Position numbers and translations under genes: made by a program
Notes under the pieces: model-generated
The model's database searches: none
What the model was told of the DNA's origin: nothing
Seen by the model: only the letters and a program-made list of their open reading frames with translations
Part shown: positions 1 through 29,052 of the stretch, in pieces
Layout of the letters: every line of letters starts with the position of its first letter
Numbering within the stretch: the first letter of the stretch is position 1
Assembly: GCA_000002445.1 (NCBI GenBank)
Contig: CP000071.1
Span: forward strand, 2,304,001 to 2,368,000
Source of the DNA: Trypanosoma brucei
Lineage: Eukaryota
Length of the DNA: 64,000 nucleotides
Direction: 5' to 3'

Positions 1-3000
1 GACTGGGTTTTATGTACCTGAAGGGCGTTTCTTTCGGCGATAAGGAGTATAAGCTGACACTTAAGGTAATGTCGATTATGGGCCGTAAATTGTGCGGTGT
101 TTTCGAATTAGACAGCTCTACTGATGGAAGGGCTTCTGATGATGATTTTGAGGCTGCATGGAAAAGGTTTGCTCCCACGATGCCACAAGGTGTAATTGTG
201 TTTGGTTCGCCAATTGAGGATACGAAGAGGTTCCTGTTGAAGTTTTTGGGGAGCAATGAATTGAGAGGTGCTTATATATTAATTCCTTCTATGCTTCAAT
301 ATGTTATTATAAACAGTTGGATGAAGGAGTTGGCCGTAAAGAATTTTGTGCCTGAGAGAGTGATACTGACGGGTCCGAGTCCACTTGCAAATGATAATGA
401 ATACATAGCAGTACGGAAGTTTCAGACTGATATGGAGAAGTACCTGGAAACAAATGGGAAACTTAATGGTCACAATTATGAAAAGGGTCACTTTTATGAT
501 CACAGTACTGACGGAGAATTGATGGTGCACGGATGGATTGTGGGCGAGGTCTTGTGGCGTACACTGGGAAGTCGTGAATCGCTGAAAAACCGTACAACTT
601 ACATGAACTCTCTGTACAACCAGCGTCGGTATGTTATCGATGATCTTGTGATTGGTGATTTTGGTGGTGAATGTGAGGGGAAGGCTGGTCAGCGTGGAGC
701 TGCATGCAAATGTAATCAAGGTGGAAATGTTGTTTACATGAAGAGGATGGGAACTGATCGGAATCTACATCCTGTGAAGGAGGGTGTAGTGACTCTCGCT
801 TCATCACGCTGCTATACGAATCTCTTACAACTGTATGCCCCATTGAATGGTATAATGTTTCGACTAGAAGACAATCCATTGGCGCAGCGGATTACAGAGG
901 AATATCGCGATGGCGCCTCCCTCGTTGTTGGAAAGGGCCAATTGGGTCAAGGTGATCGCTTCTTTTTGCATGAACTGAATTCGACATCGAGTGCGACAAA
1001 GCACAACATGTTAGAGGAGGTTAAAGAGCGTGTTGTGACGGCTGTGTTCGGTGTTGTGGATGATGCGCTACTGTCGATGACAGATATGACATTTATTGAT
1101 CCCATTCCTCTCAGTCCCAGGTTGAAACACCCCGGAAGGAATGCGTTGCATTTGTCTCCAACAATTGAGCAGCAGATTTTTGTAATGGTGGAGCGTGTTG
1201 TGGTTCCGAATTCCTGGGGGAGTGTGCATGCCATTGTTCGCAGTAGTGATGCACGTGGAATAAAATCTGTTCTTCGAAAGACTTTTTGGGCACTTGGTGG
1301 GTCGCTGGGTGCTTTCGACGAAGTTACCGACGGTGAAAGTGTGAAGAGTTTGTTGCCGCATAGCGGCTTCGTTCTCGTTATTGGTCTGACTGAAGCTGAT
1401 ATTACTGCAATTGCTGAGCATCTTGACAATCACAGGGAAGTGCGTGTATTTGCGTTATTCTTCGATGTGGCACTGCTGTACAGTGAGTTTGTGAAGGTAT
1501 TCAAAAAGCATCCGCAAGCTGCCGAGCGGTTACTATTCGCAACAAGCCTACCACACTGGGCAGACAACAATACGACATCCGAGACGGTTCAGGAATTTCA
1601 CAGGGACGTGGGGAATGAGAGTAAATGGACTCCACTGGCGCTACTTGGGTATGCGACTGCACGTGCAATGGAAAGTGTTGTGTTGCAAACGGGGCGTGTG
1701 AACTCAGAAGAGCTTATCAACACTATATTCAGTCAGTCTGTAATTGTAGCGGATGACATGTGGTATGGACCCTTTGAGGACAGTTGTTCCAATAGCCGCT
1801 GGTCATCAGCGAAAGACTGCATTGTGAATTACGGTGCGACACATATTTCCGTGTGGTCCATGGCTCGTGTGTTGAATCCTTCCGTACCTCCTGTTAGTGG
1901 AGTAGCAACACCATCAATACGTTACTACAAAGATGGATTGAATATGACTGAGGAAGAATTTATTGGCACAATTGTGGGTACCATTTTGTGTTTGATAGCA
2001 CTTGTGCTGATAGTAATGCTTATGCGGAAATGTATGCGTGGGGATACTCGCGATAACGAGAACGCACCAAGAGAATTGACAGACCCCGTAACGCTAATAT
2101 TCACTGACATCGAGAGCAGCACTGCGCAGTGGGCAGCACACCCTGAGCTTATGCCTGATGCCGTTGCAACACATCACCGCCTAATTCGCTCATTGATTTC
2201 CAAGTATGGATGCTATGAAGTGAAGACTGTTGGAGATTCTTTTATGATTGCATGCAAGAGCCCTTTCGCTGCTACGCAATTAGCGTGTGACATGCAACGA
2301 TGCTTTTTAGAACATGATTGGAAGACTGATGTGTTTGATACGTCTTATCGTGAGTTTGAGCGGCAGCGTGCGGAAGATGATGGGGATTATGTTCCACCCA
2401 CTGGCCATCTTGACCCTGATGTTTACAGTCGGTTGTGGAATGGACTGCGAGTGCGTGTTGGAATTCACACCGGGTTGTGTGATATTCGGCATGATGAAGT
2501 GACGAAAGGATATGACTTTTACGGTCGTACATCGAATATGGCAGCACGGACTGAGAGCATTGCTAATGGGGGGCAGGTGCTGTTGACACGTCCGACATAC
2601 CTTTCATTGAGTACTTCGGAGCGTGAGCAATTAAATGTGACTGCATTGGGTGATGTGCCATTGCGTGGTGTACCCAAACCTGTGGAGATGTACCAATTGA
2701 ATGCGGTACCCGGAAGGACATTTACTACACTGCGACTTGACCATGAGGTTGCTGATGACGAAGATACGAGTGTTTCTTGCAGTGATGGGAGTTCCATTGG
2801 TGCAGTTCTCAGTGATGCCGCTCAACAGGTTGTTGCTTGCGTTGAAGCACTACTTGGTGCATTCCCTACTGCGCAGCATAAGAAATTACTTATGCCATTT
2901 TGTAACCGATGGGGAGTTTCGTTACCTTATAATGTTTCTGATACGTGGGATGCAACCACGTGCCGTAATGTTACTCGCCTGCTTGCCGCGAGGGTTGGTC

Positions 3001-3206
3001 GTGTTGTGGATTTTGGGACGAAGAATACTCATGACAGTGTACAATTCTCTGAAAGACGCTCGGGAACTTTTCCGTCCAGGTTAGCTGCCGCTGTTGATCT
3101 CGTAAGCATCCCTTCAACTTCTACCTGTATTCAATCCAGCTGCAGTATTATATATATGAATGTGCCAGATGATGATGATACCAGCAAATATTCCCCTAAG
3201 CATTGA
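1..3206 (+). CDS. GRESAG4: Receptor-type adenylate cyclase (ESAG4/GRESAG4 family), copy 1. The 5' end lies outside the window and the stop is at 3204-3206. It has the ectodomain, a TM helix (FIGTIVGTILCLIALVLIVMLM) and a class III cyclase domain (LIFTDIESST...YEVKTVGDSFMIACKS...RVGIHTGL...GRTSNMAARTES).
   Basis: The ORF 12..3206 aligns colinearly with aa ~235-1267 of the full copies downstream. The frame is open from position 1. The cyclase catalytic motifs are intact. The tail variant ...SGTFPSRLAAAVDLVSIPSTSTCIQSSCSIIYMNVPDDDDTSKYSPKH is specific to this copy. Confidence 0.9.
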   Translation, partial: LGFMYLKGVSFGDKEYKLTLKVMSIMGRKLCGVFELDSSTDGRASDDDFEAAWKRFAPTMPQGVIVFGSPIEDTKRFLLKFLGSNELRGAYILIPSMLQYVIINSWMKELAVKNFVPERVILTGPSPLANDNEYIAVRKFQTDMEKYLETNGKLNGHNYEKGHFYDHSTDGELMVHGWIVGEVLWRTLGSRESLKNRTTYMNSLYNQRRYVIDDLVIGDFGGECEGKAGQRGAACKCNQGGNVVYMKRMGTDRNLHPVKEGVVTLASSRCYTNLLQLYAPLNGIMFRLEDNPLAQRITEEYRDGASLVVGKGQLGQGDRFFLHELNSTSSATKHNMLEEVKERVVTAVFGVVDDALLSMTDMTFIDPIPLSPRLKHPGRNALHLSPTIEQQIFVMVERVVVPNSWGSVHAIVRSSDARGIKSVLRKTFWALGGSLGAFDEVTDGESVKSLLPHSGFVLVIGLTEADITAIAEHLDNHREVRVFALFFDVALLYSEFVKVFKKHPQAAERLLFATSLPHWADNNTTSETVQEFHRDVGNESKWTPLALLGYATARAMESVVLQTGRVNSEELINTIFSQSVIVADDMWYGPFEDSCSNSRWSSAKDCIVNYGATHISVWSMARVLNPSVPPVSGVATPSIRYYKDGLNMTEEEFIGTIVGTILCLIALVLIVMLMRKCMRGDTRDNENAPRELTDPVTLIFTDIESSTAQWAAHPELMPDAVATHHRLIRSLISKYGCYEVKTVGDSFMIACKSPFAATQLACDMQRCFLEHDWKTDVFDTSYREFERQRAEDDGDYVPPTGHLDPDVYSRLWNGLRVRVGIHTGLCDIRHDEVTKGYDFYGRTSNMAARTESIANGGQVLLTRPTYLSLSTSEREQLNVTALGDVPLRGVPKPVEMYQLNAVPGRTFTTLRLDHEVADDEDTSVSCSDGSSIGAVLSDAAQQVVACVEALLGAFPTAQHKKLLMPFCNRWGVSLPYNVSDTWDATTCRNVTRLLAARVGRVVDFGTKNTHDSVQFSERRSGTFPSRLAAAVDLVSIPSTSTCIQSSCSIIYMNVPDDDDTSKYSPKH

Positions 3207-3967
3207 AATATGTGTCCATTATTGCCAGAATAATTGGATAAGGTTCAATGAAAGATCTGTGCATGTTTCTTGTTCGATATTGGATGTTTTCGATAATATT
3301 CTTTTTAGGTTATATTTTCCACTTCTATGTATACACGGTATCCTCCTCACATGTTGGGTGCTTTCCATATTCGTGTGTTCCGCTTAGCTAGTGATTAAAG
3401 CACTTATTGAAGCAAACCCACTTTTCGTTTGTTGTTATAAAGTGGGGGATGTACTTATTTTCTCCATACTCTCACTGTGTGAAGCGTTATTTTTCTTGTT
3501 TCCCACTTCCGGTGAGCGGGTGTCAGGCAAAATGCACTGACCTCCTATATTAATGAAAATCGATGCATTCCCGTGCTGGACAGATAAGCCATCGTATTAT
3601 TAACTTCTAATGTTGCTGTTGGTACAACATATCAGTGTTGTTCACTTTGCTTTCCTTTACTATTATGTTGAAATGGTTTATTGTTTTTTTCTTTTTGTGT
3701 GCATATATCTGTATATGTGTTTCGATATACCGTCACCACTCTACCACGTTGATGGATTGGGGAATGGCTACTGATTGATTAATGCATGGTTTTTTGTCAC
3801 TTTAATAACAACATTGTATTCCATGATGGCTTTCAGCAACTGACCCTTGTGTACAATTTCCTGTTTATTTCCCTCTACTGACACAAATCTTTTTTACTAA
3901 TATCTTTTCCTTCTTTTATCACTTTCCAGGACTTGACAAGCCAAATATGTGAGGCTGGCTATTGCAT
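3207..3967. repeat. Intergenic 3'-flank element A, variant A1. It is repeated again at 4465..5225.
   Basis: It is near-identical to 4465..5225 (same strings, e.g. gtgggggatgtacttattttctccatactctcactgtgtgaagcg...ccggtgagcgggtgtcagg). Its 3' ~450 bp is shared with all other inter-cyclase spacers. It ends in a polypyrimidine tract followed by ...ctttccag. Confidence 0.75.
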
Positions 3968-4464
3968 TTGGAAGGACATTTGCTACACTGCGACTTAACC
4001 ATGAGGTTGCTGATGACGAAGATACGAGTGTTTCTTGCAGTGATGGGAGTTCCATTGGTGCAGTTCTCAGTGATGCCGCTCATCAGGCCGTTGCTTTTAT
4101 TGAAGCACTACTTGGTGCATTCCCTACTGCGCAGCATAAGAAATTACTTATGCCATTTTGTAACCGATGGGGAGTTTCGGCGCCTTATAATGTTTCTGAT
4201 ACGTGGGATGCAACCACGTGCCGTAATGTTACTCGCCTGCTTGCCGCGAGGGTTGGTCGTGTTGTGGATTTTGGGACGAAGAATACTCATGACAGTGTAC
4301 AATCCTTTGATAGACGCTCGGGAACTTTTCCGTCCAGGTTAGCTGCCGCTGTTGATCTCGTAAGCATCCCTTCAACTTCTACCTGTATTCAATCCAGCTG
4401 CAGTATTATATATATGAATGTGCCAGATGATGATGATACCAGCAAATATTCCCCTAAGCATTGA
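3968..4464 (+). pseudogene. Orphan cyclase 3'-tail remnant (F/T hybrid). The 5' part is F-type (LNHEVADDED...AAHQAVAFIEALL) and the 3' part is identical in type to the copy-1 tail, ending ...IIYMNVPDDDDTSKYSPKH*.
   Basis: ORF 3949..4464 (GTG-initiated in the track) encodes only the last ~170 aa of the cyclase. It is preceded by spacer rather than by the cyclase body. Its downstream flank duplicates the copy-1 flank. Confidence 0.75.
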
Positions 4465-5225
4465 AATATGTGTCCATTATTGCCAGAATAATTGGATAAG
4501 GTTCAATACATGATCTGTGCATGTTTCTTTTTCGATATTGGATGTTTTCGATAATATTCTTTTTAGGTTATATTTTTCACTTCTATGTATACACGGTATC
4601 CTCCTCACATGTTGGGTGCTTTCCATATTCGTGTGTTCCGCCTAGCTAGTGATTAAAGCACTTATTGAAGCAAACCCACTTTTCGTTTGTTGTTATAAAG
4701 TGGGGGATGTACTTATTTTCTCCATACTCTCACTGTGTGAAGCGTTATTTTTCTTGTTTCCCACTTCCGGTGAGCGGGTGTCAGGAAAAATGCACTGACC
4801 TCCTATATTAATGAAAATCGATGCATTCCCGTGCTGGACAGATAAGCCATCGTATTATTAACTTCTAATGTTGCTGTTGGTACAACATATCAGTGTTGTT
4901 CACTTTGCTTTCCTTTACTATTATGTTGAAATGGTTTATTGTTTTTTTCTTTTTGTGTGCATATATCTGTATATGTGTTTCGATATACCGTCACCACTCT
5001 ACCACGTTGATGGATTGGGGAATGGCTACTGATTGATTAATGCATGGTTTTTTGTCACTTTAATAACAACATTGTATTCCATGATGGCTTTCAGCAACTG
5101 ACCCTTGTGTACAATTTCCTGTTTATTTCCCTCTACTGACACAAATCTTTTTTACTAATATCTTTTCCTTCTTTTATCACTTTCCAGGACTTGACAAGCC
5201 AAATATGTGAGACTGGCTATTGCAT
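4465..5225. repeat. Second copy of the intergenic element A1.
   Basis: The sequence is colinear and near-identical with 3207..3967. Confidence 0.75.
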
Positions 5226-5491
5226 TTGGAAGGACATTTGCTACACTGCGACTTAACCATGAGGTTGCTGATGACGAAGATACGAGTGTTTCTTGCAGTG
5301 ATGGGAGTTCCATTGGTGCAGTTCTCAGTGATGCCGCTTATCAGGCCGTTGCTTTTATTGAAGCACTACTTGGTGCATTCCCTACTGCGCAGCGTAAGAA
5401 ATTACTTATGCCATTTTGTAACCGATGGGGAGTTTCGGCGCCTCGTAATGTTTCTGATACGTGGGATGCAACCACGTGCCGTAATGTTACA
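5226..5491 (+). pseudogene. F fragment. This is an orphan ~266-bp copy of the cyclase 3'-tail coding region (homologous to ~8922..9188 of the next gene). It diverges after ...TTCRNVT into VTCV* and abuts the trans-splice region of copy 2.
   Basis: ORF 5207..5506 translates to RTFATLRLNHEVADDEDTSVSCSDGSS...NVSDTWDATTCRNVTVTCV*. The same fragment recurs before every array copy. Confidence 0.75.
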
Positions 5492-5506
5492 GTCACTTGT
5501 GTGTAA

Positions 5507-5640
5507 TTGAATTTCAACTGCACTCTCTTCTGCTCCCTTTCGTGCCCTTACTTTATTGTTGTCTATTATCATTATTATTATTATTCTCTCATTTCTCTCC
5601 TTTAAGACTTACGAATTCCTCAAGTCAAGTCACCAGTGTT
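5507..5640 (+). promoter_or_regulatory. Polypyrimidine tract (ctctcttctgctccctttcgtgccc...tctctcatttctctcctttaag) with AG dinucleotides. This is a putative spliced-leader trans-splice acceptor region and 5' UTR of cyclase copy 2.
   Basis: A pyrimidine run is followed by AG ~35-40 nt upstream of the first in-frame ATG. This is the kinetoplastid trans-splicing architecture (established knowledge). The exact acceptor is not determinable from sequence. Confidence 0.5.
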
Positions 5641-8600
5641 ATGGCTTCCTTCATGCGTCTTGTTACTCCACTTGGCGCTGCAGTGGCTTGCAGTCATCTC
5701 CTCATGGTTGTGTTACCGCTGCTGTTACTTATTCCTGGTTTATGTGCTGATAAAGACTGTAACAGTAGCAGTGTAACGGTGAGGGTGTATAATTTGTTGT
5801 ACAGCTCTAAGATATCAAGTAAAATCTATGAACCCGTCATTGCTGGTTTCAATGCCTCGCTACATGCGCATAATGATGATTTGCCGGCAAATGTGTGCAT
5901 AGAGGTCGAACATGTTCATGCCAGAAGCGATGAGGATTACGTCTCATATTTAAAGGATAAAATTGATGGAGATGCTGCTGTACATAATAAGAGTGAACTG
6001 CCCATTGTGCTGGGACCTGTTGGTGATGTGACTACTCTCCATCTCACCAGGGAACTTGAGAAGTTTGAAATAGTGGCCTTTTCTCCCTTTACTGGATCTT
6101 CGGATGTGCGTGTGTGGAAAAAGAATCTGTACTTCCTTACGGCATCGCCTGTTGCAGAGGTGCTTGCACTAATTCGTTACGCTGTGAGTCAATTGAGGTT
6201 TCAGCGACTGGGTTTTATGTACCTGAAGGGTGTGTTTTATGGCGATAAGGAGTATAAGCTGACACTTAAGGTAATGTCGATTATGGGCCGTAAATTGTGC
6301 GGTGTTTTCGAATTAGACAGCTCTACTGATGGAAGGGCTTCTGATGATGATTTTGAGGCTGCATGGAAAAGGTTTGCTCCCACGATGCCACAAGGTGTAA
6401 TTGTGTTTGGTTCGCCAATTGAGGATACGAAGAGGTTCCTGATGAAGTTTTTAGGGAGCAATGAATTGAGAGGTGCTTATATATTAATTCCTTCCATGCT
6501 TCAATATGTTATCAAAAACAGTTGGGTGAAGGAGTTGGCCGTAAAGAATTTTGTGCCTGAGAGAGTGATACTGACGGGTCCGAGTCCACTTGCAAATGAT
6601 AATGAATACATAGCGGTACGGAAGTTTCAGCCTGTTATGGAGAAGTACCTGGAAAAAAATGGGAAACTTAATGGTCACAATTATGAAAAGGGTCACTTTT
6701 ACCAGCACAGTACTGACGGAGAATTGATGCTGCACGGATGGATCACAGGCGAGGTCTTGTGGCGTACACTGGGAAGTCGTGAATTACTGAAAAACCGTAC
6801 AACTTACATGAACTCTCTGTACAACCAGCGTCGGTATGTTATCGATGATCTTGTGATTGGTGATTTTGGTGGTGAATGTGAGGGGAAGGCTGGTCAGCGT
6901 GGAGCTGCATGCAAATGTAATCAAGGTGGAAATGTTGTTTACATGAAGAGGATGGGAACTGATCGGAATCTACATCCTGTGAAGGAGGGTGTAGTGACTC
7001 TCGCTTCATCACGCTGCTATACGAATCTCTTACAACTGTATGCCCCATTGAATGGTATAATGTTTCGACTAGAAGACAATCCATTGGCGCAGCGGATTAC
7101 AGAGGAATATCGCGATGGCGCCTCCCCCGTTGTTGGAAAGGGCCAATTGGGTCAAGGTGATCGCTTATTTTTGCATGAACTGAATTCGACATCGAGTGCG
7201 ACAAAGCACAACATGTTAGAGGAGGTTAAAGAGCGTGTTGTGACGGCCGTGTTCGGTGTTGTGGATGACGCGCTACTGTCGATGACAGATATGACATTTA
7301 TTGATCCCATTCCTCTCAGTCCCAGGTTGAAACACCCCGGAAGGAATGTGTTGCATTTGTCTCCAACAATTGAACAGCAGATTTTTGTAATGGTGGAGCG
7401 TGTTGTGGTTCCGAATTCCTGGGGGAGTGTGCATGCCATTGTTCGCAGTAGTGATGCACGTGGAATAAAATCTGTTCTTCGAAAGACTTTTTGGGCACTT
7501 GGTGGGTCGCTGGGTGCTTTCGACGAAGTTACCGACAGTGAAAGTGTGAAGAGTTTGTTACCGAATAGCGGCTTCGTTCTCGTTATTGGTCTAACTGAAG
7601 CTGATATTACTGCAATTGCTGAGCATCTTGACAATCACAGGGAAGTGCGTGTATTTGTGTTATTCTTCGATGTGGCACTGCTGTACAGTGAGTTTGTGAA
7701 GGTATTCAAAAAGCATCCGCAAGCTGCCGAGCGGTTACTATTCGCAACAAGCCTACCACACTGGGCAGACAACAATACGACATCCGAGACGGTTCAGGAG
7801 TTTCACAGGGACGTGGGGAATGAGAGTAAATGGACTCCACTGGCGCTGCTTGGGTATGCGACTGCACGTGCAATGGAAAGTGTTGTGTTGCAAATGGGGC
7901 GTGTGAACTCAGAAGAGCTTATCAACACTATATTCAGTCAGTCTGTAATTGTAGCGGATGACATGTGGTATGGACCCTTTGAGGACAGTTGTTCCAATAG
8001 CCGCTGGTCATCAGCGAAAGACTGCATTGTGAATTACGGTGCGACACATATTTCCGTGTGGTCCATGGCTCGTGTGTTGAATCCTTCCGTACCTCCTGTT
8101 AGTGGAGTAGCAGCACCATCAATACGTTACTACAAAGATGGATTGAATATGACTGAGGAAGAATTTATTGGCACAATTGTGGGTACCATTTTGTGTTTGA
8201 TAGCACTTGTGCTGATAGTAATGCTTATGCGGAAATGTATGCGTGGGGATACTCGCGATAACGAGAACGCACCAAAAGAATTGACAGACCCCGTAACGCT
8301 AATATTCACTGACATCGAGAGCAGCACTGCGCAGTGGGCAGCACACCCTGAGCTTATGCCTGATGCCGTTGCAACACATCACCGCCTAATTCGCACATTG
8401 ATTTCCAAGTATGGATGCTATGAAGTGAAGACTGTTGGAGATTCTTTTATGATTGCATGCAAGAGCCCTTTCGCTGCTACGCAATTAGCGTGTGACCTGC
8501 AGCGGTGCTTTTTAGAACATGATTGGAAGACTGATGTGTTTGATACGTCTTATCGTGAGTTTGAGCGGCAGCGTGCGGAAGATGATGGGGATTATGTTCC

Positions 8601-9444
8601 ACCCACTGGCCATCTTGACCCTGATGTTTACAGTCGGTTGTGGAATGGACTGCGAGTGCGTGTTGGAATTCACACCGGGTTGTGTGATATTCGGCATGAT
8701 GAAGTGACGAAAGGATATGACTTTTACGGTCGTACATCGAATATGGCAGCACGGACTGAGAGCATTGCTAATGGCGGGCAGGTGCTGTTGACACGTTCGA
8801 CATACCTTTCATTGAGTACTTCGGAGCGTGAGCAATTAAATGTGACTGCATTGGGTGATGTGCCATTGCGTGGTGTACCCAAACCTGTGGAGATGTACCA
8901 ATTGAATGCGGTACCCGGAAGGACATTTACTACACTGCGACTTGACCATGAGGTTGCTGATGACGAAGATACGAGTGTTTCTTGCAGTGATGGGAGTTCC
9001 ATTGGTGCAGTTCTCAGTGATGCCGCTCATCAGGCCGTTGCTTTTATTGAAGCACTACTTGGTGCATTCCCTACTGCGCAGCATAAGAAATTACTTATGC
9101 CATTTTGTAACCGATGGGGAGTTTCGTTACCTTATAATGTTTCTGATACGTGGGATGCAACCACGTGCCGTAATGTTACTCGCCTGCTTGCCGCGAGGGT
9201 TGGTCGTGTTGTGGATTTTGGGACGAAGAATACTCATGACAGTGTACAATCCTTTGATAGACGCTCGGGAACTTTCCCACCTGGATTGGTTGCCTCTGTT
9301 CCTGAGGAGGGTAGTTTAGCTTCAACTTCTACCTGTATTCAATCCAGCTGCAGTGTTGTGTACATGATGAATGGGCCAGATGATGATGATACCAGCAAAT
9401 GTTCCCCTAAGCATTGCAATATGCGTCCGTTATTGCCAGAATAA
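5641..9444 (+). CDS. GRESAG4: Receptor-type adenylate cyclase, copy 2 (1267 aa). It has a signal peptide (MASFMRLVTPLGAAVACSHLLMVVLPLLLLIPGLCA), an ectodomain, a TM helix and a class III cyclase domain.
   Basis: The long ORF 5497..9444 (track start is TTG). The first in-frame ATG is at 5641, directly followed by a hydrophobic signal sequence. The catalytic motifs are complete. Confidence 0.9.
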   Translation: MASFMRLVTPLGAAVACSHLLMVVLPLLLLIPGLCADKDCNSSSVTVRVYNLLYSSKISSKIYEPVIAGFNASLHAHNDDLPANVCIEVEHVHARSDEDYVSYLKDKIDGDAAVHNKSELPIVLGPVGDVTTLHLTRELEKFEIVAFSPFTGSSDVRVWKKNLYFLTASPVAEVLALIRYAVSQLRFQRLGFMYLKGVFYGDKEYKLTLKVMSIMGRKLCGVFELDSSTDGRASDDDFEAAWKRFAPTMPQGVIVFGSPIEDTKRFLMKFLGSNELRGAYILIPSMLQYVIKNSWVKELAVKNFVPERVILTGPSPLANDNEYIAVRKFQPVMEKYLEKNGKLNGHNYEKGHFYQHSTDGELMLHGWITGEVLWRTLGSRELLKNRTTYMNSLYNQRRYVIDDLVIGDFGGECEGKAGQRGAACKCNQGGNVVYMKRMGTDRNLHPVKEGVVTLASSRCYTNLLQLYAPLNGIMFRLEDNPLAQRITEEYRDGASPVVGKGQLGQGDRLFLHELNSTSSATKHNMLEEVKERVVTAVFGVVDDALLSMTDMTFIDPIPLSPRLKHPGRNVLHLSPTIEQQIFVMVERVVVPNSWGSVHAIVRSSDARGIKSVLRKTFWALGGSLGAFDEVTDSESVKSLLPNSGFVLVIGLTEADITAIAEHLDNHREVRVFVLFFDVALLYSEFVKVFKKHPQAAERLLFATSLPHWADNNTTSETVQEFHRDVGNESKWTPLALLGYATARAMESVVLQMGRVNSEELINTIFSQSVIVADDMWYGPFEDSCSNSRWSSAKDCIVNYGATHISVWSMARVLNPSVPPVSGVAAPSIRYYKDGLNMTEEEFIGTIVGTILCLIALVLIVMLMRKCMRGDTRDNENAPKELTDPVTLIFTDIESSTAQWAAHPELMPDAVATHHRLIRTLISKYGCYEVKTVGDSFMIACKSPFAATQLACDLQRCFLEHDWKTDVFDTSYREFERQRAEDDGDYVPPTGHLDPDVYSRLWNGLRVRVGIHTGLCDIRHDEVTKGYDFYGRTSNMAARTESIANGGQVLLTRSTYLSLSTSEREQLNVTALGDVPLRGVPKPVEMYQLNAVPGRTFTTLRLDHEVADDEDTSVSCSDGSSIGAVLSDAAHQAVAFIEALLGAFPTAQHKKLLMPFCNRWGVSLPYNVSDTWDATTCRNVTRLLAARVGRVVDFGTKNTHDSVQSFDRRSGTFPPGLVASVPEEGSLASTSTCIQSSCSVVYMMNGPDDDDTSKCSPKHCNMRPLLPE

Positions 9445-10200
9445 TTGGATAAGGTTCAATACATGATCTGTGCATGTTTCTTTTTCGATATTAGATTTTT
9501 TCGATAATATTCTTTTTAGGTTGTCTCTATTACTATGTGTGCTCAGCATCCTCCTCACATGTTGGGTGGTTTTATTATCCCTCTGATGAAAGAAATTTCT
9601 TGAAATGCTGTTGGCAATCTTTTATTTTAATACGTTTAGCGGTAAGCGCTTTTCGTTTTTCCTTTATTATGCGATACCGGAGCATGCATATCACTGCTGA
9701 TGCTCCGGCCCATAGTTTATGATATGTGTTCTTTTCCACCCCCGGTGAGTGGGTGTCAGGCAAAATGCACTGATATCCTCTTTTGGTGGGAATTTATAAG
9801 TTACCATGCTGGACAGTTGAGCCACCGTATTATTAACTTCTAATGTTGCTGTTGGTACAACATATCAGTGTCGTTCACTTTGATTTCCTTTACTATTATG
9901 TTGAAATGGTTTATTGTTTTTTTCTTTTTGTGTGCATATATCTGTATATGTGTTTCGATATACCGTCACCACTCTACCACGTTGATGGATTGGGGAATGG
10001 CTACTGATTGATTAATGCATGGTTTTTTGTCACTTTAATAACAACATTGTATTCCATGATGGCTTTCAGCAACTGACCCTTGTGTACAATTTCCTGTTTA
10101 TTTCCCTCTACTGACACAAATCTTTTTTACTAATATCTTTTCCTTCTTTTATCACTTTCCAGGACTTGACAAGCCAAATATGTGAGACTGGCTATTGCAT
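9445..10200. repeat. Intergenic 3'-flank element A, variant A2.
   Basis: It shares the conserved 3' ~450 bp (ccggtgagtgggtgtcaggcaaaatgcactgatatcc...gttgctgttggtacaacatatcag...ctttccaggacttgacaagccaaatatgtgag) with the other spacers. Its 5' ~300 bp differs from A1 and from the 14414 spacer. Confidence 0.7.
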
Positions 10201-10466
10201 TCGGAAGGACATTTACTACACTGCGACTTAACCATGAGGTTGCTGATGACGAAGATACGAGTGTTTCTTGCAGTGATGGGAGTTCCATTGGTGCAGTTCT
10301 CAGTGATGCCGCTTATCAGGCCGTTGCTTTTATTGAAGCACTACTTGGTGCATTCCCTACTGCGCAGCGTAAGAAATTACTTATGCCATTTTGTAACCGA
10401 TGGGGAGTTTCGGCGCCTCGTAATGTTTCTGATACGTGGGATGCAACCACGTGCCGTAATGTTACA
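10201..10466 (+). pseudogene. F fragment (orphan cyclase-tail remnant) upstream of copy 3.
   Basis: ORF 10182..10481 has the same translation as 5207..5506 with 2 substitutions. Confidence 0.75.
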
Positions 10467-10481
10467 GTCACTTGTGTGTAA

Positions 10482-10615
10482 TTGAATTTCAACTGCACTC
10501 TCTTCTGCTCCCTTTCGTGCCCTTACTTTATTGTTGTCTATTATCATTATTATTATTATTCTCTCATTTCTCTCCTTTAAGACTTACGAATTCCTCAAGT
10601 CAAGTCACCAGTGTT
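10482..10615 (+). promoter_or_regulatory. Polypyrimidine/AG putative trans-splice acceptor region and 5' UTR of copy 3.
   Basis: It is homologous to 5507..5640. Confidence 0.5.
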
Positions 10616-13600
10616 ATGGCTTCCTTCATGCGTCTTGTTACTCCACTTGGCGCTGCAGTGGCTTGCAGTCATCTCCTCATGGTTGTGTTACCGCTGCTGT
10701 TACTTATTCCTGGTTTATGTGCTGATAAAGACTGTAACAGTAGCAGTGTAACGGTGAGGGTGTATAATTTGTTGTACGGTTCCGACGTATCAAAAGCAAT
10801 CTATGAACCCGTCATTGCTGGTTTCAATGCCTCTATCGAAGCGCACAAAGGGGATTTACCGGCAAATGTGTGCATAGAGGTGAAATATGTGCATCACGAT
10901 GGCAATGTTATTGAGGTTGGGAATATAAATAGGATTGTTGAAGAAGACAAAGGAAATATGAATGAACTGCCCATTGTGCTGGGACCTTTTGGTGATTGGG
11001 AAACTCGTAATATTTCCTCGGAACTTGAAGAGTTGAAGGTAGTTGCCTTTTCTCCCTTTACTGGATCTTCGGATGTGCGTGTGTGGAAAAAGAATCTGTA
11101 CTTCCTTACGGCATCGCCTGTTGCACAGGTGCTTGCACTAATTCGTTATGCAGTGAGTCAATTGAGGCTTCAGCGACTGGGTTTTATGTACCTGAAGGGT
11201 GTGTTTTATGGCGATAAGGAGTATAAGCTGACACTTAAGGTAATGTCGATTATGGGCCGTAAATTGTGCGGTGTTTTCGAATTAGACAGCTCTACTGATG
11301 GAAGGGCTTCTGATGATGATTTTGAGGCTGCATGGAAAAGGTTTGCTCCCACGATGCCACAAGGTGTAATTGTGTTTGGTTCGCCAATTGAGGATACGAA
11401 GAGGTTCCTGTTGAAGTTTTTAGGGAGCAATGAATTGAGAGGTGCTTATATATTAATTCCTTCTATGCTTCAATATGTTATCAAAAACAGTTGGATGAAG
11501 AAGTTGGCCGTAAAGAATTTTGTGCCTGAGAGAGTGATACTGACGGGTCTGACTCCACTTGCAAATGATAATGAATACATAGCAGTACGGAAGTTTCAGA
11601 CTGATATGGAGAAGTACCTGGAAAAAAATGGGAAACTTAATGGTCACAATTATGAAAAGGGTCACTTTTATGATCACAGTACTGACGGAGAATTGATGGT
11701 GCACGGATGGATCACAGGCGAGGTCTTGTGGCGTACACTGGGAAGTCGTGAATTACTGTGCAACCGTACAGCTTACATGAACTCTCTGTACAACCAGCGT
11801 CGGTATGTTATCGATGATCTTGTGATTGGTGATTTTGGTGGTGAATGTGAGGGGAAGGCTGGTCAGCGTGGAGCTGCATGCAAATGTAATCAAGGTGGAA
11901 ATGTTGTTTACATGAAGAGGATGGGAACTGATCGGAATCTACATCCTGTGAAGGAGGGTGTAGTGACTCTCGCTTCATCACGCTGCTATACGAATCTCTT
12001 ACAACTGTATGCCCCATTGAATGGTATAATGTTTCGACTGGAAGACAATCCATTGGCGCAGCGGATTACAGAGGAATATCGCGATGGCGCCTCCCCCGTT
12101 GTTGGAAAGGGCCAATTGGGTCAAGGTGATCGCTTCTTTTTGCATGAACTGAATTCGACATCGAGTGCGACAAAGCACAACATGTTAGAGGAGGTTAAAG
12201 AGCGTGTTGTGACGGCCGTGTTCGGTGTTGTGGATGACGCGCTACTGTCGATGACAGATATGACATTTATTGATCCCATTCCTCTCAGTCCCAGGTTGAA
12301 ACACCCCGGAAGGAATGTGTTGCATTTGTCTCCAACAATTGAGCAGCAGATTTTTGTAATGGTGGAGCGTGTTGTGGTTCCGAATTCCTGGGGGAGTGTG
12401 CATGCCATTGTTCGCAGTAGTGATGCACGTGGAATAAAATCTGTTCTTCGAAAGACTTTTTGGGCACTTGGTGGGTCGCTGGGTGCTTTCGACGAAGTTA
12501 CCGACGGTGAAAGTGTGAAGAGTTTGTTACCGCATAGCGGTTTCGTTCTCGTTATTGGTCTAACTGAAGCTTATATTACTGCAATTGCTGAGCATCTTGA
12601 CAATCACAGGGAAGTGCGTGTATTTGTGTTATTCTTCGATGTGGCACTGCTGTACAGTGAGTTTGTGAAGGTATTCAAAAAGCATCCGCAAGCTGCCGAG
12701 CGGTTACTATTCGCAACAAGCCTACCACACTGGGCAGACAACAATACGACATCCGAGACGGTTCAGGAATTTCACAGGGACGTGGGGAATGAGAGTAAAT
12801 GGACTCCACTGGCGCTGCTTGGGTATGCGACTGCACGTGCAATGGAAAGTGTTGTGTTGCAAATGGGGCGTGTGAACTCAGAAGAGCTTATCAACACTAT
12901 ATTCAGTCAGTCTGTAATTGTAGCGGATGACATGTGGTATGGACCTTTTGAGGACAGTTGTTCCAATAGCCGCTGGTCATCAGCGAAAGACTGCATTGTG
13001 AATTACGGTGCGACACATATTTCCGTGTGGTCCATGGCTCGTGTGTTGAATCCTTCCGTACCTCCTGTTAGTGGAGTAGCAACACCATCAATACGTTACT
13101 ACAAAGATGGATTGAATATGACTGAGGAAGAATTTATTGGCACAATTGTGGGTACCATTTTGTGTTTGATAGCACTTGTGCTGATAGTAATGCTTATGCG
13201 GAAATGTATGCGTGGGGATACTCGCGATAACGAGAACGCACCAAGAGAATTGACAGACCCCGTAACGCTAATATTCACTGACATCGAGAGCAGCACTGCG
13301 CAGTGGGCAGCACACCCTGAGATTATGCCTGATGCCGTTGCAACACATCACCGCCTAATTCGCACATTGATTTCCAAGTATGGATGCTATGAAGTGAAGA
13401 CTGTTGGAGATTCTTTTATGATTGCATGCAAGAGCCCTTTCGCTGCTACGCAATTAGCGTGTGACCTGCAACGATGCTTTTTAGAACATGATTGGAAGAC
13501 TGATGTGTTTGATACGTCTTATCGTGAGTTTGAGCGGCAGCGTGCGGAAGATGATGGGGATTATGTTCCACCCACTGGCCATCTTGACCCTGATGTTTAC

Positions 13601-14413
13601 AGTCGGTTGTGGAATGGACTGCGAGTGCGTGTTGGAATTCACACCGGGTTGTGTGATATTCGGCATGATGAAGTGACGAAAGGATATGACTTTTACGGTC
13701 GTACATCGAATATGGCAGCACGGACTGAGAGCATTGCTAATGGCGGGCAGGTGCTGTTGACACGTTCGACATACCTTTCATTGAGTACTTCGGAGCGTGA
13801 GCAATTAAATGTGACTGCATTGGGTGATGTGCCATTGCGTGGTGTACCCAAACCTGTGGAGATGTACCAATTGAATGCGGTACCCGGAAGGACATTTACT
13901 ACACTGCGACTTGACCATGAGGTTGCTGATGACGAAGATACGAGTGTTTCTTGCAGTGATGGGAGTTCCATTGGTGCAGTTCTCAGTGATGCCGCTCATC
14001 AGGTTGTTGCTTTTATTGAAGCACTACTTGGTGCATTCCCTACTGCGCAGCGTAAGAAATTACTTATGCCATTTTGTAACCGATGGGGAGTTTCGTTACC
14101 TTATAATGTTTCTGATACGTGGGATGCAACCACGTGCCATAATGTTACTCGCCTGCTTGCCGCGAAGGTTGGTCGTGTTGTGGATTTTGGGACGAAGAAT
14201 ACTCATGACAGTGTACAATTCTCTGAAAGACGCTCGGGAACTTTCCCACCTGGATTGGTTGCCTCTGTTTCTGAGGAGGGTAGTTTAGCTTCAACTTCTA
14301 CCTGTATTCAATCCAGCTGCAGTGTTGTGTACATGATGAATGGGCCAGATGATGATGATACCAGCAAATATTCCCCTAGGCATTGCAATATGTGTCCATT
14401 ATTGCCAGAATAA
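10616..14413 (+). CDS. GRESAG4: Receptor-type adenylate cyclase, copy 3 (1265 aa). The N-terminal hypervariable patch is of the beta type (GSDVSKAIY...KYVHHDGNVIEVGNINRIVEEDKGNMNE...WETRNISSELEELKVVAF).
   Basis: ORF 10472..14413, with the first ATG at 10616. The cyclase motifs are intact. Confidence 0.9.
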   Translation: MASFMRLVTPLGAAVACSHLLMVVLPLLLLIPGLCADKDCNSSSVTVRVYNLLYGSDVSKAIYEPVIAGFNASIEAHKGDLPANVCIEVKYVHHDGNVIEVGNINRIVEEDKGNMNELPIVLGPFGDWETRNISSELEELKVVAFSPFTGSSDVRVWKKNLYFLTASPVAQVLALIRYAVSQLRLQRLGFMYLKGVFYGDKEYKLTLKVMSIMGRKLCGVFELDSSTDGRASDDDFEAAWKRFAPTMPQGVIVFGSPIEDTKRFLLKFLGSNELRGAYILIPSMLQYVIKNSWMKKLAVKNFVPERVILTGLTPLANDNEYIAVRKFQTDMEKYLEKNGKLNGHNYEKGHFYDHSTDGELMVHGWITGEVLWRTLGSRELLCNRTAYMNSLYNQRRYVIDDLVIGDFGGECEGKAGQRGAACKCNQGGNVVYMKRMGTDRNLHPVKEGVVTLASSRCYTNLLQLYAPLNGIMFRLEDNPLAQRITEEYRDGASPVVGKGQLGQGDRFFLHELNSTSSATKHNMLEEVKERVVTAVFGVVDDALLSMTDMTFIDPIPLSPRLKHPGRNVLHLSPTIEQQIFVMVERVVVPNSWGSVHAIVRSSDARGIKSVLRKTFWALGGSLGAFDEVTDGESVKSLLPHSGFVLVIGLTEAYITAIAEHLDNHREVRVFVLFFDVALLYSEFVKVFKKHPQAAERLLFATSLPHWADNNTTSETVQEFHRDVGNESKWTPLALLGYATARAMESVVLQMGRVNSEELINTIFSQSVIVADDMWYGPFEDSCSNSRWSSAKDCIVNYGATHISVWSMARVLNPSVPPVSGVATPSIRYYKDGLNMTEEEFIGTIVGTILCLIALVLIVMLMRKCMRGDTRDNENAPRELTDPVTLIFTDIESSTAQWAAHPEIMPDAVATHHRLIRTLISKYGCYEVKTVGDSFMIACKSPFAATQLACDLQRCFLEHDWKTDVFDTSYREFERQRAEDDGDYVPPTGHLDPDVYSRLWNGLRVRVGIHTGLCDIRHDEVTKGYDFYGRTSNMAARTESIANGGQVLLTRSTYLSLSTSEREQLNVTALGDVPLRGVPKPVEMYQLNAVPGRTFTTLRLDHEVADDEDTSVSCSDGSSIGAVLSDAAHQVVAFIEALLGAFPTAQRKKLLMPFCNRWGVSLPYNVSDTWDATTCHNVTRLLAAKVGRVVDFGTKNTHDSVQFSERRSGTFPPGLVASVSEEGSLASTSTCIQSSCSVVYMMNGPDDDDTSKYSPRHCNMCPLLPE

Positions 14414-15170
14414 TTGGATAAGGTTCAATACATGATCTGTGCATGTTTCTTTTTAGATATTGGATGTTTTCGATAATATTCTTTTTAGGTTATATTTTCC
14501 ACTTCTATGTATGCTCAGCATCCTCCTCACATGTTGGGTGGTTTTAAAATTTTTCCTTAATTGATTAATTTTTTTTAGGGACGTTATTGACCTCTAATAA
14601 TAATAAACTTAGTGTGTTTACTTGTTTTTAATCCTTTAAGATGTGGCACGGTAGCACTCATGTTACTACTGATGCTCCGGCCCATAGTTTATGATATGTG
14701 TTCTTTTCCACCCCCGGTGAGTGGGTGTCAGGCAAAATGCACTGATATCCTCTTTTGGTGGGAATTTATAAGTTACCATGCTGGACAGTTGAGCCACCGT
14801 ATTATTAACTTCTAACGTTGCTGTTGGTACAACATATCAGTGTTGTTCACTTTGCTTTCCTTTACTATTATATTGAAATGGTTTATTGTTTTTTTCTTTT
14901 TGTGCATATATATGTATATGTGTTTCGATATACCGTCACCACTCTACCACGTTGATGGATTGGGGAATGGCTACTGATTGATTAATGCATGGTTTTTTGT
15001 CACTTTAATAACAACATTGTATTCCATGATGGCTTTCAGCAACTGACCCTTGTGTGTAATTTCCTGTTTATTTCCCTCTACTGACACAAATCTTTTTTAC
15101 TAATATCTTTTCCTTCTTTTATCACTTTCCAGGACTTGACAAGCCAAATATGTGAGGCTGGCTATTGCAT
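14414..15170. repeat. Intergenic 3'-flank element A. The 5' part is a third variant and the 3' part is conserved.
   Basis: It aligns to 23069..23825 over its whole length, and to 9445..10200 only in the 3' two-thirds. Confidence 0.7.
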
Positions 15171-15436
15171 TCGGAAGGACATTTACTACACTGCGACTTA
15201 ACCATGAGGTTGCTGATGACGAAGATACGAGTGTTTCTTGCAGTGATGGGAGTTCCATTGGTGCAGTTCTCAGTGATGCCGCTTATCAGGCCGTTGCTTT
15301 TATTGAAGCACTACTTGGTGCATTCCCCACTGCGCAGCGTAAGAAATTATTTATGCCATTTTGTAACCGATGGGGAGTTTCGGCGCCTCGTAATGTTTCT
15401 GATACGTGGGATGCAACCACGTGCCATAATGTTACA
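15171..15436 (+). pseudogene. F fragment upstream of copy 4.
   Basis: ORF 15152..15451. Confidence 0.75.
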
Positions 15437-15451
15437 GTTACTTGTGTGTAA

Positions 15452-15585
15452 TTGAATTTCAACTGCACTCTCTTCTGCTCCCTTTCGTGCCCTTACAGTA
15501 TTGTTGTCTATTATCATTATTATCATTATTCTCTCATTTCTCTTCTTTAAGACTTACGAATTCCTCAAGTCAAGTCACCAGTGTT
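15452..15585 (+). promoter_or_regulatory. Polypyrimidine/AG putative trans-splice acceptor region of copy 4.
   Basis: It is homologous to 5507..5640. Confidence 0.5.
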
Positions 15586-18500
15586 ATGGCTTCCTTCATG
15601 CGTCTTGTTACTCCACTTGGCGCTGCAGTGGCTTGCAGTCATCTCCTCATGGTTGTGTTACCGCTGCTGTTACTTATTCCTGGTTTATGTGCTGAGGAGT
15701 GTAACAGCAGTGGTAAAGTGTCAGTGAAAGTGCACAGTTTGTTGTACAGCTCTAAGATATCAAGTAAAATCTATGAACCCGTCATTGCTGGTTTCAATGC
15801 CTCGCTACATGCGCATAATGATGATTTACCGGCAAATGTGTGCATAGAGGTCGAACATGTTCATGCCAGAAGTGATGAGGATTACGTCTCATATTTAAAG
15901 AATAAAATTGATGGAGACGCTGCTGTACAAAATAAGAGTGAACTGCCCATTGTGCTGGGACCTTTTGGTGATGAGACTACTCTCCATCTCACCAGGGAAC
16001 TTGAGAAGTTTGAAATAGTGGCCTTTTCTCCCTTTACTGGATCTTCGGATGTGCGTGTGTGGAAAAAGAATCTGTACTTCCTTACGGCATCGCCTGTTGC
16101 AGAGGTGCTTGCACTAATTCGTTATGCTGTGAGTCAATTGAGGCTTCAGCGACTGGGTTTTATGTACCTGAAGGGCGTTTCTTTCGGCGATAAGGAGTAT
16201 AAGCTGACACTTAAGGTAATGTCGATTATGGGCCGTAAATTGTGCGGTGTTTTCGAATTAGACAGCTCTACTGATGGAAGGGCTTCTGATGATGATTTTG
16301 AGGCTGCATGGAAAAGGTTTGCTCCCACGATGCCACAAGGTGTAATTGTGTTTGGTTCGCCAATTGAGGATACGAAGAGGTTCCTGATGAAGTTTTTAGG
16401 GAGCAATGAATTGAGAGGTGCTTATATATTAATTCTTTCTATGCTTCAATATGTTATCAAAAACAGTTGGATGAAGGAGTTGGCCGTAAAGAATTTTGTG
16501 CCTGAGAGAGTGATACTGACGGGTCCGAGTCCACTTGCAAATGATAATGAATACATAGCGGTACAGAAGTTTCAGCCTGATATGGAGAAGTACCTGGAAA
16601 AAAGTGGAAACTTAATGGTCACAATTATGAAAAGGGTCACTTTTACCAGCACAGTACTGACGGAGAATTGATGCTGCACGGATGGATCACAGGCGAGGTC
16701 TTGTGGCGTACACTGGGAAGTCGTGAATTACTGTGCAACCGTACAACTTACATGAACTCTCTGTACAACCAGCGTCGGTATGTTATCGATGGTCTTGTGA
16801 TTGGTGATTTTGGTGGTGAATGTGAGGGGAAGGCTGGTCAGCGTGGAGCTGCATGCAAATGTAATCAAGGTGGAAATGTTGTTTACATGAAGAGGATGGG
16901 AACTGATCGGAATCTACATCCTGTGAAGGAGGGTGTAGTGACTCTCGCTTCATCACGCTGCTATACGAATCTCTTACAACTGTATGCCCCATTGAATGGT
17001 ATAATGTTTCGACTGGAAGACAATCCATTGGCGCAGCGGATTACAGAGGAATATCGCGATGGCGCCTCCCTCGTTGTTGGAAAGGGCCAATTGGGTCAAG
17101 GTGATCGCTTCTTTTTGCATGAACTGAATTCGACATCGAGTGCGACAAAGCACAACATGTTAGAGGAGGTTAAAGAGCGTGTTGTGACGGCTGTGTTCGG
17201 TGTTGTGGATGACGCGCTACTGTCGATGACAGATATGACATTTATTGATCCCATTCCTCTCAGTCCCAGGTTGAAACACCCCGGAAGGAATGTGTTGCAT
17301 TTGTCTCCAACAATTGAACAGCAGATTTTTGTAATGGTGGAGCGTGTTGTGGTTCCGAATTCCTGGGGGAGTGTGCATGCCATTGTTCGCAGTAGTGATG
17401 CACGTGGAATAAAATCTGTTCTTCGAAAGACTTTTTGGTCACTTGGTGGGTCGCTGGGTGCTTTCGACGAAGTTACCGACGGTGAAAGTGTGAAGAGTTT
17501 GTTACCGCATAGCGGTTTCGTTCTCGTTATTGGTCTAACTGAAGCTGATATTACTGCAATTGCTGAGCATCTTGACAATCACAGGGAAGTGCGTGTATTT
17601 GTGTTATTCTTCGATGTGGCACTGCTGTACAGTGAGTTTGTGAAGGTATTCAAAAAGCATCCGCAAGCTGCCGAGCGGTTACTATTCGCAACAAGCCTAC
17701 CACACTGGGCAGACAACAATACGACATCCGAGACGGTTCAGGAATTTCACAGGGACGTGGGGATTCAGAGTAAATGGACTCCACTGGCGCTGCTTGGGTA
17801 TGCGACTGCACGTGCAATGGAAAGTGTTGTGTTGCAAATGGGGCGTGTGAACTCAGAAGAGCTTATCAACACTATATTCAGTCAGTCTGTAATTGTAGCG
17901 GATGACATGTGGTATGGACCCTTTGAGGACAGTTGTTCCAATAGCCGCTGGTCATCAGCGAAAGACTGCATTGTGAATTACGGTGCGACACATATTTCCG
18001 TGTGGTCCATGGCTCGTGTGTTGAATCCTTCCGTACCTCCTGTTAGTGGAGTAGCAACACCATCAATACGTTACTACAAAGATGGATTGAATATGACTGA
18101 GGAAGAATTTATTGGCACAATTGTGGGTACCATTTTTTGTTTGATAGCACTTGTGCTGATAGTAATGCTTATGCGGAAATGTATGCGTGGGGATACTCGC
18201 GATAACGAGAACGCACCAAAAGAATTGACAGACCCCGTAACGCTAATATTCACTGACATCGAGAGCAGCACTGCGCAGTGGGCAGCACACCCTGAGCTTA
18301 TGCCTGATGCCGTTGCAACACATCACCGCCTAATTCGCACATTGATTTCCAAGTATGGATGCTATGAAGTGAAGACTGTTGGAGATTCTTTTATGATTGC
18401 ATGCAAGAGCCCTTTCGCTGCTACGCAATTAGCGTGTGACCTGCAACGATGCTTTTTAGAACATGATTGGAAGACTGATGTGTTTGATACGTCTTATCGT

Positions 18501-19139
18501 GAGTTTGAGCGGCAGCGTGCGGAAGATGATGGGGATTATGTTCCACCCACTGGCCATCTTGACCCTGATGTTTACAGTCGGTTGTGGAATGGACTGCGAG
18601 TGCGTGTTGGAATCCACGCCGGGTTGTGTGATATTCGGCATGATGAAGTGACGAAAGGATATGACTTTTACGGTCGTACATCGAATATGGCAGCACGGAC
18701 TGAGAGCATTGCTAATGGCGGGCAGGTGCTGTTGACACGTTCGACATACCTTTCATTGAGTACTTCGGAGCGTGAGCAATTAAATGTGACTGCATTGGGT
18801 GATGTGCCATTGCGTGGTGTACCCAAACCTGTGGAGATGTACCAATTGAATGCGGTACCCGGAAGGACATTTACTACACTGCGACTTGACCATGAGGTTG
18901 CTGATGACGAAGATACGAGTGTTTCTTGCAGTGATGGGAGTTCCATTGGTGCAGTTCTCAGTGATGCCGCTCATCAGGTTGTTGCTTTTATTGAAGCACT
19001 ACTTGGTGCATTCCCCACTGCGCAGCGTAAGAAATTACTTATGCCATTTTGTAACCGATGGGGAGTTTCGGCACCTTATAATGTTTCTGATACGTGGGAT
19101 GCAACCACGTGCCATAATGTTACAGTCACTTGTGTGTAA
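15586..19139 (+). pseudogene. GRESAG4: Receptor-type adenylate cyclase copy 4, disrupted. A -1 frameshift lies in a homopolymer at ~16610-16616 (ggaaaaaagtggaaac, where the other copies read ggaaaaaaatgggaaac). The C-terminus is replaced by the F-type ending ...TTCHNVTVTCV*. The gene then runs directly into the next copy's splice region with no 3' flank.
   Basis: The ORF track splits the copy into 15442..16671 and 16668..19139 in different frames. The unit length here is 3688 bp, against ~4970 elsewhere. Confidence 0.8.
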
Positions 19140-23825: not shown

Positions 23826-24091
23826 TCGGAAGGACATTTACTACACTGCGACTTGACCATGAGGTTGCTGATGACGAAGATACGAGTGTTTCTTGCAGTG
23901 ATGGGAGTTCCATTGGTGCAGTTCTCAGTGATGCCGCTCATCAGGCCGTTGCTTTTATTGAAGCACTACTTGGTGCATTCCCTACTGCGCAGCGTAAGAA
24001 ATTACTTATGCCATTTTGTAACCGATGGGGAGTTTCGGCACCTTATAATGTTTCTGATACGTGGGATGCAACCACGTGCCATAATGTTACA
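23826..24091 (+). pseudogene. F fragment upstream of copy 6.
   Basis: ORF 23807..24106. Confidence 0.75.
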
Positions 24092-28786: not shown

Positions 28787-29052
28787 TCGGAAGGACATTT
28801 ACTACATTGCGACTGGACCGTCGAATTATTGATGACGAAGATACGAGTGTTTCTTGCAGTGATGGGAGTTCCATTGGTGCAGTTCTCAGTGATGCCGCTT
28901 ATCAGGCCGTTGCTTTTATTGAAGCACTACTTGGTGCATTCCCTACTGCGCAGCGTAAGAAATTACTTATGCCATTTTGTAACCGATGGGGAGTTTCGGC
29001 GCCTTATAATGTTTCTGATACGTGGGATGCAACCACGTGCCATAATGTTACA
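28787..29052 (+). pseudogene. F fragment upstream of copy 7. It carries the LDRRIIDDED variant.
   Basis: ORF 28768..29067. Confidence 0.75.

Follow-up and report, generated by a model that had tools for sequence, protein, structure and literature searches.

The intergenic spacers of the GRESAG4 receptor adenylate-cyclase array on chromosome 8 of Trypanosoma brucei carry a recurrent 263-bp fragment, here called F, that is probably a non-coding relic of the post-catalytic segment of the cyclase gene (amino acids 1093-1180), swapping sequence with the gene tails, seeding misaligned crossovers and being passively transcribed. Read in this way, F accounts for an orphan-tail pseudogene and a tail-truncated pseudogene in the array, for patchy variants in the cyclase tails, and for the two pyrimidine-tract/AG modules found in each spacer.

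The window (the whole 64,000-nucleotide stretch that was analysed) corresponds to T. brucei TREU927 chromosome 8, positions 2,304,001-2,368,000. Adding 2,304,000 to a window position gives the Tb927_08_v4 coordinate, an offset obtained from published gene coordinates: Tb927.8.7900 (2314616-2318413) falls on the cyclase at 10616-14413, Tb927.8.7950 (2338138-2343381) falls on 34138-39381, and the H+-pyrophosphatase at 47748-50228 is Tb927.8.7980. The window carries the array Tb927.8.7860-7940, which was named Tb80a and given 8 copies by Jackson 2007 (PMC1855330). Seven cyclase copies, G0 to G6, lie inside the window, and the array features described below are on the + strand. G0 starts outside the window, ends at 3206 and is Tb927.8.7870 by gene order; G1 (5641-9444, with its ATG at 5641) encodes a protein of 1267 amino acids that matches a GRESAG4 protein of TREU927 with 100% identity; G2 (10616-14413) is Tb927.8.7900; G3 (15586-19139) is frameshifted and truncated in its tail; G4 (19274-23068), the fifth cyclase in the window, is probably Tb927.8.7920; and G5 (24241-28044) is followed by G6 (29202-32954), the last gene of the array, which has a divergent tail. 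The parent genes match the Pfam families PF25495, PF25493 and PF00211, and the encoded protein combines two periplasmic-binding-protein-like domains with a class III cyclase domain at amino acids 879-1089.

The units of the array are 95-98% identical to each other. Divergence between them is very uneven, reaching 10-17% in a segment of the N-terminal ectodomain (5845-6145 and equivalents) and 19-24% over the ~250 nt of 3'UTR that follow the stop codon (9445-9700 and equivalents), but only 0.3% in the distal 3'UTR (9951-10070 and equivalents); the units thus resemble mosaics of homogenised and hypervariable segments. Copy number also varies widely, with three cyclase genes in T. b. equiperdum (CM010679.1, ~1,359,000-1,373,900), and the array is interrupted by N gaps in the T. 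b. gambiense assembly.

A standard spacer is ~1.17 kb long and consists, in order, of ~626 nt of 3'UTR, a pyrimidine-rich block of 92 nt that ends in an AG (AG-A), a 40-nt linker, the 263-bp F, a stretch of 56 nt that is confined to internal spacers, and the AG-B module, in which an 86-nt pyrimidine tract leads to the AG that belongs to the next gene, 35 nt 5' of its ATG. Upstream of G1 this genuine tract with AG-B occupies 5520-5606 (AG at 5605-5606, next ATG at 5641), and the arrangement is repeated in every unit. A BLASTN search of the window with 5096-5500 returned five F copies, one per internal spacer, at 5228-5490 (F0), 10203-10465 (F1), 15173-15435 (F2), 23828-24090 (F4) and 28789-29051 (F5); the positions given in the first-pass annotation were accurate to within 1-2 nt. 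In the same search, with E-values of F matches from 1e-80 to 1e-128, F was 94-98% identical to the homologous tail blocks (T) of six genes, namely T0 (2712-2974, in G0), T1 (8917-9179), T2 (13886-14148), the hybrid T/F block of G3 (18861-19123), T4 (22550-22809) and T5 (27517-27779). Identity to the divergent block of the last gene, T6 (32469-32731), was 84%, and no F follows this gene in the window. Within 29202-33112, G6 has a strongly divergent tail, with a pN/pS of ~1 in the tail end, and it has only the first ~124 nt of the 3'UTR in common with the other units.

In all copies F is a stop-free copy of cyclase codons 1093-1180, counted from the ATG at 5641. The T block, at amino acids 1093-1180 in G1, lies directly 3' of the Pfam cyclase domain, starting three codons past the end of the catalytic-domain match. 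The proposal that F is in frame with the cyclase therefore held, while the residue range first assigned to it, ~1165-1255, was about 70 residues too high.

Every F is preceded by a 132-nt block that occurs in spacers only, starting at 3838, 5096, 10071, 15041, 23696 and 28657. This block holds a 27-nt pyrimidine tract ending ...ttatcactttccAG, and the F-side tract with AG-A spans 5096-5187 in the spacer after G0, with equivalents at 10071-10162, 15041-15132, 23696-23787 and 28657-28748. F had been described as starting right after the tract and its AG and as ending immediately before the tract of the next gene. Neither boundary is so close: the tail homology begins 41 nt 3' of AG-A, and between the 3' end of F and the 86-nt AG-B tract there are a further 30-115 nt. 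Both junctions (...GCATTT|GGAAGG... and ...GTTAC|AGTCAC...) are sharp and fall at the identical nucleotide in every copy, including those of T. b. gambiense and T. b. equiperdum, and no microhomology was found at either of them. The interval 3840-3967, which had also been listed as leading into a short F, does contain the pyrimidine tract and linker, but what it precedes is the longer orphan tail at 3970-4464.

Gene conversion between F and T is ongoing, and the two evolve in concert. Within TREU927 there are 0 fixed differences between F and T, and 12 sites are polymorphic in both, compared with 6 polymorphic in F alone and 11 in T alone. Given a single origin of F, states that are polymorphic among both F and T need either transfer or parallel mutation. 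Parallel mutation is excluded as the explanation by a cluster of 7 differences in 10 nt (alignment positions 32-41) that is common to F5 and T4 only, with a related form in T6; elsewhere F5 is F-like and T4 is T-like. At the protein level F5 and T4 share an RRII patch, seen as LDRRIIDDED in the F at 28789 and as LDRRIIDEDTS in the tail at 22550, where it carries a 3-nt deletion, and the same G4 tail shares the AAYQ and SAPRNV states with F copies, all as the first-pass annotation had read them.

The strain comparison points in the same direction. F copies from T. b. gambiense and T. b. equiperdum differ at a mean of 6.6 sites from the T of their own strain vs. 11.8 sites from the F of TREU927, and carry own-strain T states at positions 119-120, 156 and 211-213; being closer to own-strain T than to the F of another strain is a signature of concerted evolution. 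An alignment of F and T copies followed by a conversion test had been proposed as a check on patch exchange between them. In a Sawyer-type run test with 2000 site permutations, the F5 mosaic was significant at a global P<=0.001, and a fragment common to T4 and F0 at 156-254 was significant at a global P=0.04 (pairwise 0.003). Additionally, 119 of the 253 informative site pairs failed the four-gamete test (Rmin 5), and a PHI-like permutation gave P=0.002 with T6 included and a borderline P=0.05-0.08 with T6 left out. Segregating sites are denser in F (18 in 263 nt) than in the flanking spacer (10 in 402 nt; Fisher P=0.009), as would follow from an import of variants into F from the tails, which are more diverse. 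Combined, the absence of fixed differences, the shared sites, the co-variation by strain and the permutation results bear out the proposed exchange of patches. Lying ~1.26-1.29 kb out of register with T, F keeps swapping short tracts with the tails.

The same homology block has also served as the substrate of unequal exchange, as was originally suggested, since a duplication product (3970-5227) and a deletion product (15586-19139) are both present in the window. F and T are separated by 1258-1287 bp, and out-of-register crossover between them gave both an orphan tail with a second 3'UTR and a tail-truncated gene lacking a 3'UTR. The duplication is local and in tandem, with 3970-5227 copying 2712-3969 over 1258 bp. 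It supplies a duplicate F-side pyrimidine tract at 3838-3929 (AG-A at 3928-3929), which is 98.7% identical to 5096-5187, and a 40-nt linker from AG-A to the tail homology (3930-3969), which holds a minimal ATG-TGA. The orphan cyclase tail then spans 3970-4464: its F/T hybrid block (3970-4232) begins F-like and runs on through the tail end to the stop codon at 4462-4464, and a second copy of the 3'UTR follows at 4465-5095 within the duplication. The stretch 4233-5227 is identical to 2975-3969 of G0 at 984 of 995 positions (98.9%) vs. ~88% for other units, which identifies the event as a local tandem duplication by exchange between T0 and F0. T. b. equiperdum has the same orphan-tail arrangement after its first gene. 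Judging from gene order only, the orphan tail appears to be the annotated GRESAG4 pseudogene Tb927.8.7880, since G0 is Tb927.8.7870 and G2 is Tb927.8.7900, leaving G1 and the fragment for 7880 and 7890.

The reciprocal kind of structure is seen in G3, whose T block is T-type at first and F-type afterwards and is joined without interruption to the 5' region of G4; AG-A has been deleted together with the 3'UTR and the end of the tail. Both the duplication and the deletion thus have their junctions inside the F/T homology block. Relative to G1, G3 also has a 1-nt deletion near 16605 that splits its open reading frame into 15442-16671 and 16668-19139.

F itself probably has neither a coding nor a structural function. 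Comparisons among F copies give a pN/pS of 0.95, the T block of intact genes gives 1.02 and the catalytic domain 0.24, indicating no coding constraint on F and only weak constraint on the homologous tail block. The frame of F is open from the TGA at 5192-5194 onwards, and its first in-frame ATG comes only within the last 33 codons; upstream of F there is no in-frame ATG either, and mechanically called GTG/TTG ORFs alone are present. Translation of the F region (5195-5499) matched no Pfam family, the window contained no Rfam matches, and the predicted RNA fold of 10041-10530 was not unusual (z=-0.39). The possibility that F is itself a receptor-type adenylate cyclase gene was rejected, as it comprises amino acids 1093-1180 alone, with no ectodomain or catalytic domain and no ATG-initiated ORF.

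T. b. gambiense DAL972 and T. b. equiperdum also have F, bounded by the same junctions, and the identical sharp junctions of all copies in three assemblies indicate a single origin. In T. b. gambiense and T. b. equiperdum no F occurs upstream of the first array gene, where homology to the unit sets in only at unit position 452 (window 5547), which is 94 nt 5' of the ATG and within the AG-B tract. Searches by tblastn with gene tails found no tail fragments in the spacers of two T. b. gambiense arrays, on chromosomes 4 and 7, or in that of the T. congolense cyclase pair, and the same procedure recovered every F from the window itself as a positive control. F thus probably arose once, after the chromosome 4/8 duplication described in Jackson 2007b and before the split of the T. 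brucei subspecies. It would have been fixed once in the intergenic spacer of the chromosome 8 repeat unit and then have spread with the unit through unequal crossing-over.

A retroposed origin of F was ruled out, there being no A-run and no target-site duplication or flanking direct repeat at the junctions. The sequence upstream of F was also compared with the genuine 5' region, of which it might have been a degenerate copy; the local alignment score of 16 did not stand out from shuffled sequences (13.9 +/- 2.4, P=0.22), and upstream regions of other genes scored as high or higher. Apart from F matching gene tails, the chromosome 8 spacer has nothing in common with the spacers of the chromosome 4 array or with T. 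congolense, and no outgroup spacer aligning across the F insertion point was found, the region 3' of the last gene having 124 nt of common 3'UTR alone. Likewise, no intermediate form of F is kept in the outgroup arrays compared (T. b. gambiense chromosomes 4 and 7 and the T. congolense pair). Two illegitimate junctions lacking microhomology were needed to create F, and possible founding events are the decay of a truncated gene into a fossil, as the first-pass annotation had suggested, the insertion of a copied tail segment, or a pair of deletions.

The position of F between two pyrimidine-tract/AG modules raises the matter of RNA processing. A trans-splice acceptor in T. brucei is defined by a pyrimidine tract followed by an AG, with no G at -3 (Kolev 2010, PMC2936537), and AG-A fits this definition, with a tract that abuts the AG and a C at -3; the tract measures 27 nt at AG-A vs. 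86 nt at AG-B. Table S1 of Kolev 2010 (PMC2936537), based on procyclic-form data, lists for each gene one 5'-most spliced-leader (SL) site and one 3'-most poly(A) site. For Tb927.8.7900 the poly(A) site falls at window position 15454, 19 nt past F2 and ~97 nt before AG-B, which places F inside the longest 3'UTR of this gene, of 1041 nt. For Tb927.8.7860 the poly(A) site lies 597 nt past the stop codon (Kolev 2010, PMC2936537), which, when placed by homology (its own spacer being outside the window), is ~15-34 nt before the F-side block and ~120 nt before AG-A. This evidence on transcript ends consists of two table entries from one data set, in which read assignment on near-identical repeats is uncertain. 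Both modules seem able to position poly(A) sites. No SL-addition site at AG-A is listed for Tb927.8.7900 in the same table, the 5'-most site being at window position 10630, and Kolev 2010 called no novel transcript within the array, hence none for F. As a separate observation, there is no AG at 10630, which is inside the gene (10616 onwards); the listed site may be a mapping artefact on repeats or reflect a start at a downstream methionine.

The suggestion that the F-side AG tract acts as a competing processing site is accordingly upheld in part: the acceptor definition and the poly(A) sites near the tract agree with it, but Table S1 lists no SL site at AG-A for Tb927.8.7900, and no F transcript was called. 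From published mapping and the layout of the spacer, F would be transcribed passively in the polycistron between the two modules. The mRNA of the upstream cyclase seems also to have a shorter form, which stops right ahead of the F-side tract, and the F-side module may owe its separate existence solely to the insertion of F between the two modules.

A functional version of this arrangement would hold that the F-side tract, its AG and F together form a selected RNA-processing or regulatory module, offering the upstream gene a choice between a short and a long 3'UTR and the downstream gene perhaps a long, F-containing 5'UTR. The agreement of AG-A with known signals and the poly(A) sites reported on both sides of F speak for such a module, as does the near identity of the distal 3'UTR and F-side tract between units (0.3-1.3% pairwise divergence), for which selection to keep a processing signal, and not just homogenisation, could be responsible. 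Homogenisation explains this conservation equally well, however, and the failure to find an SL site at AG-A, the lack of any novel transcript called inside the array, the status of F as the most variable part of the central spacer with no fold signal, and the working of the chromosome 4 and 7 cyclase arrays without such a module all make the idea unlikely. Much the same evidence of exchange could instead suggest that the array retains its F copies as silent donor cassettes for diversifying the C-terminal tails of the cyclases, a small-scale analogue of mosaic VSG formation. The C-terminal tail is thought to govern flagellar sub-localisation and partner binding. In agreement with a donor role, Tb927.8.7920, which is probably the gene containing T4, has been placed at the flagellar tip by Durante 2020, its tail carries F-type patches, and the pN/pS of the T block is ~1.0 vs. 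0.24 in the catalytic domain. Yet relaxed constraint would give a value near 1 just as diversifying selection would, there are merely five or six F copies with 6 sites polymorphic in F alone, the exchange is two-way with F looking more like the recipient (its diversity exceeds that of its flanks), and the same homology block has also yielded two pseudogenes, which leaves this reading most improbable. Joining the two ideas, so that the F copies would be in-array silent donors for C-terminal tails and the two-module spacer would give regulated alternative polyadenylation or trans-splicing, is very unlikely as well; if it were true, the diversification of tails in a receptor family and the control of its expression would be linked through a single insertion.

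Collapsed or mis-joined repeats in the assembly could also have given rise, as artefacts, to the mosaic patterns and the hybrid structures, a concern that the 95-98% identity of the units and the N gaps in the T. b. gambiense assembly of the locus make natural. The same F junctions are found in three independent assemblies, though, the orphan-tail duplication occurs in both T. b. equiperdum and TREU927, and the orphan-tail locus appears, from gene order, to be separately annotated as a pseudogene in the reference genome, so the chance that artefacts explain the data is practically negligible. The non-coding relic that exchanges sequence with the gene tails is the reading carried forward here.

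This reading extends what has been described for the same locus. Allelic gene conversion and unequal crossing-over make the tandem arrays of T. brucei evolve in concert (Jackson 2007, PMC1855330; Jackson et al. 2010, PMC2854126). For Tb80a, Jackson reported concerted evolution strong enough to make the copies from T. brucei and those from T. b. gambiense reciprocally monophyletic, and listed two conversion events, of which one is in the CDS and the other, of 58 bp, is labelled 3'UTR (Jackson 2007, PMC1855330). The locus and the processes are those of the F/T exchange. Whereas those analyses compare units in register, the exchange described here links a coding block with its non-coding copy ~1.26-1.29 kb away in the same unit. 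The searchable portions of the Jackson text and supplements make no mention of an out-of-register spacer tail fragment, and no description of a per-spacer tail fragment or of its role as a recombination substrate was found in the searchable literature text. Cyclase gene fragments as such are common in the T. brucei genome (Durante et al. 2020).

F can also be set beside other known systems. With regard to processing, trans-splicing and polyadenylation are coupled in T. brucei and use alternative sites (Kolev 2010, PMC2936537; Nilsson 2010, PMC2916883; Siegel 2010, PMC2926603); the spacer resembles such coupled signals in having two modules, each with a published poly(A) site that may lie at about the distance expected for such signals, roughly 100-150 nt upstream of the AG, and differs from them in that the F-side AG is only a putative SL acceptor. 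With regard to recombination, the comparison is with pseudogene relics. CYP21A1P with CYP21A2 and the globin pseudogenes are known cases of relics that convert with a functional paralogue. Like these, F is non-functional, is kept similar by conversion, can donate variants and mediates unequal crossovers; unlike them, it measures only 263 bp, occurs once per unit, lies inside a polycistron and is probably part of a 3'UTR. No new mechanism is involved, as conversion and unequal crossing-over have already been reported for the Tb927.8.7860-7940 array, and the general interest is modest, being that of a new instance of a known repeat-array process. In practical terms, F calls for caution in annotation, read mapping and tagging or knock-out experiments at Tb927.8.7860-7940, where primers or guides directed at codons 1093-1180 will hit every spacer.

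Two features lie outside the array. The novel transcript Tb8.NT.133, of 415 nt, falls between the last cyclase and Tb927.8.7950, at window positions 33600-34015 (Kolev 2010, PMC2936537). Additionally, an open reading frame of >4060 codons on the + strand (51821-64000) runs off the end of the window.
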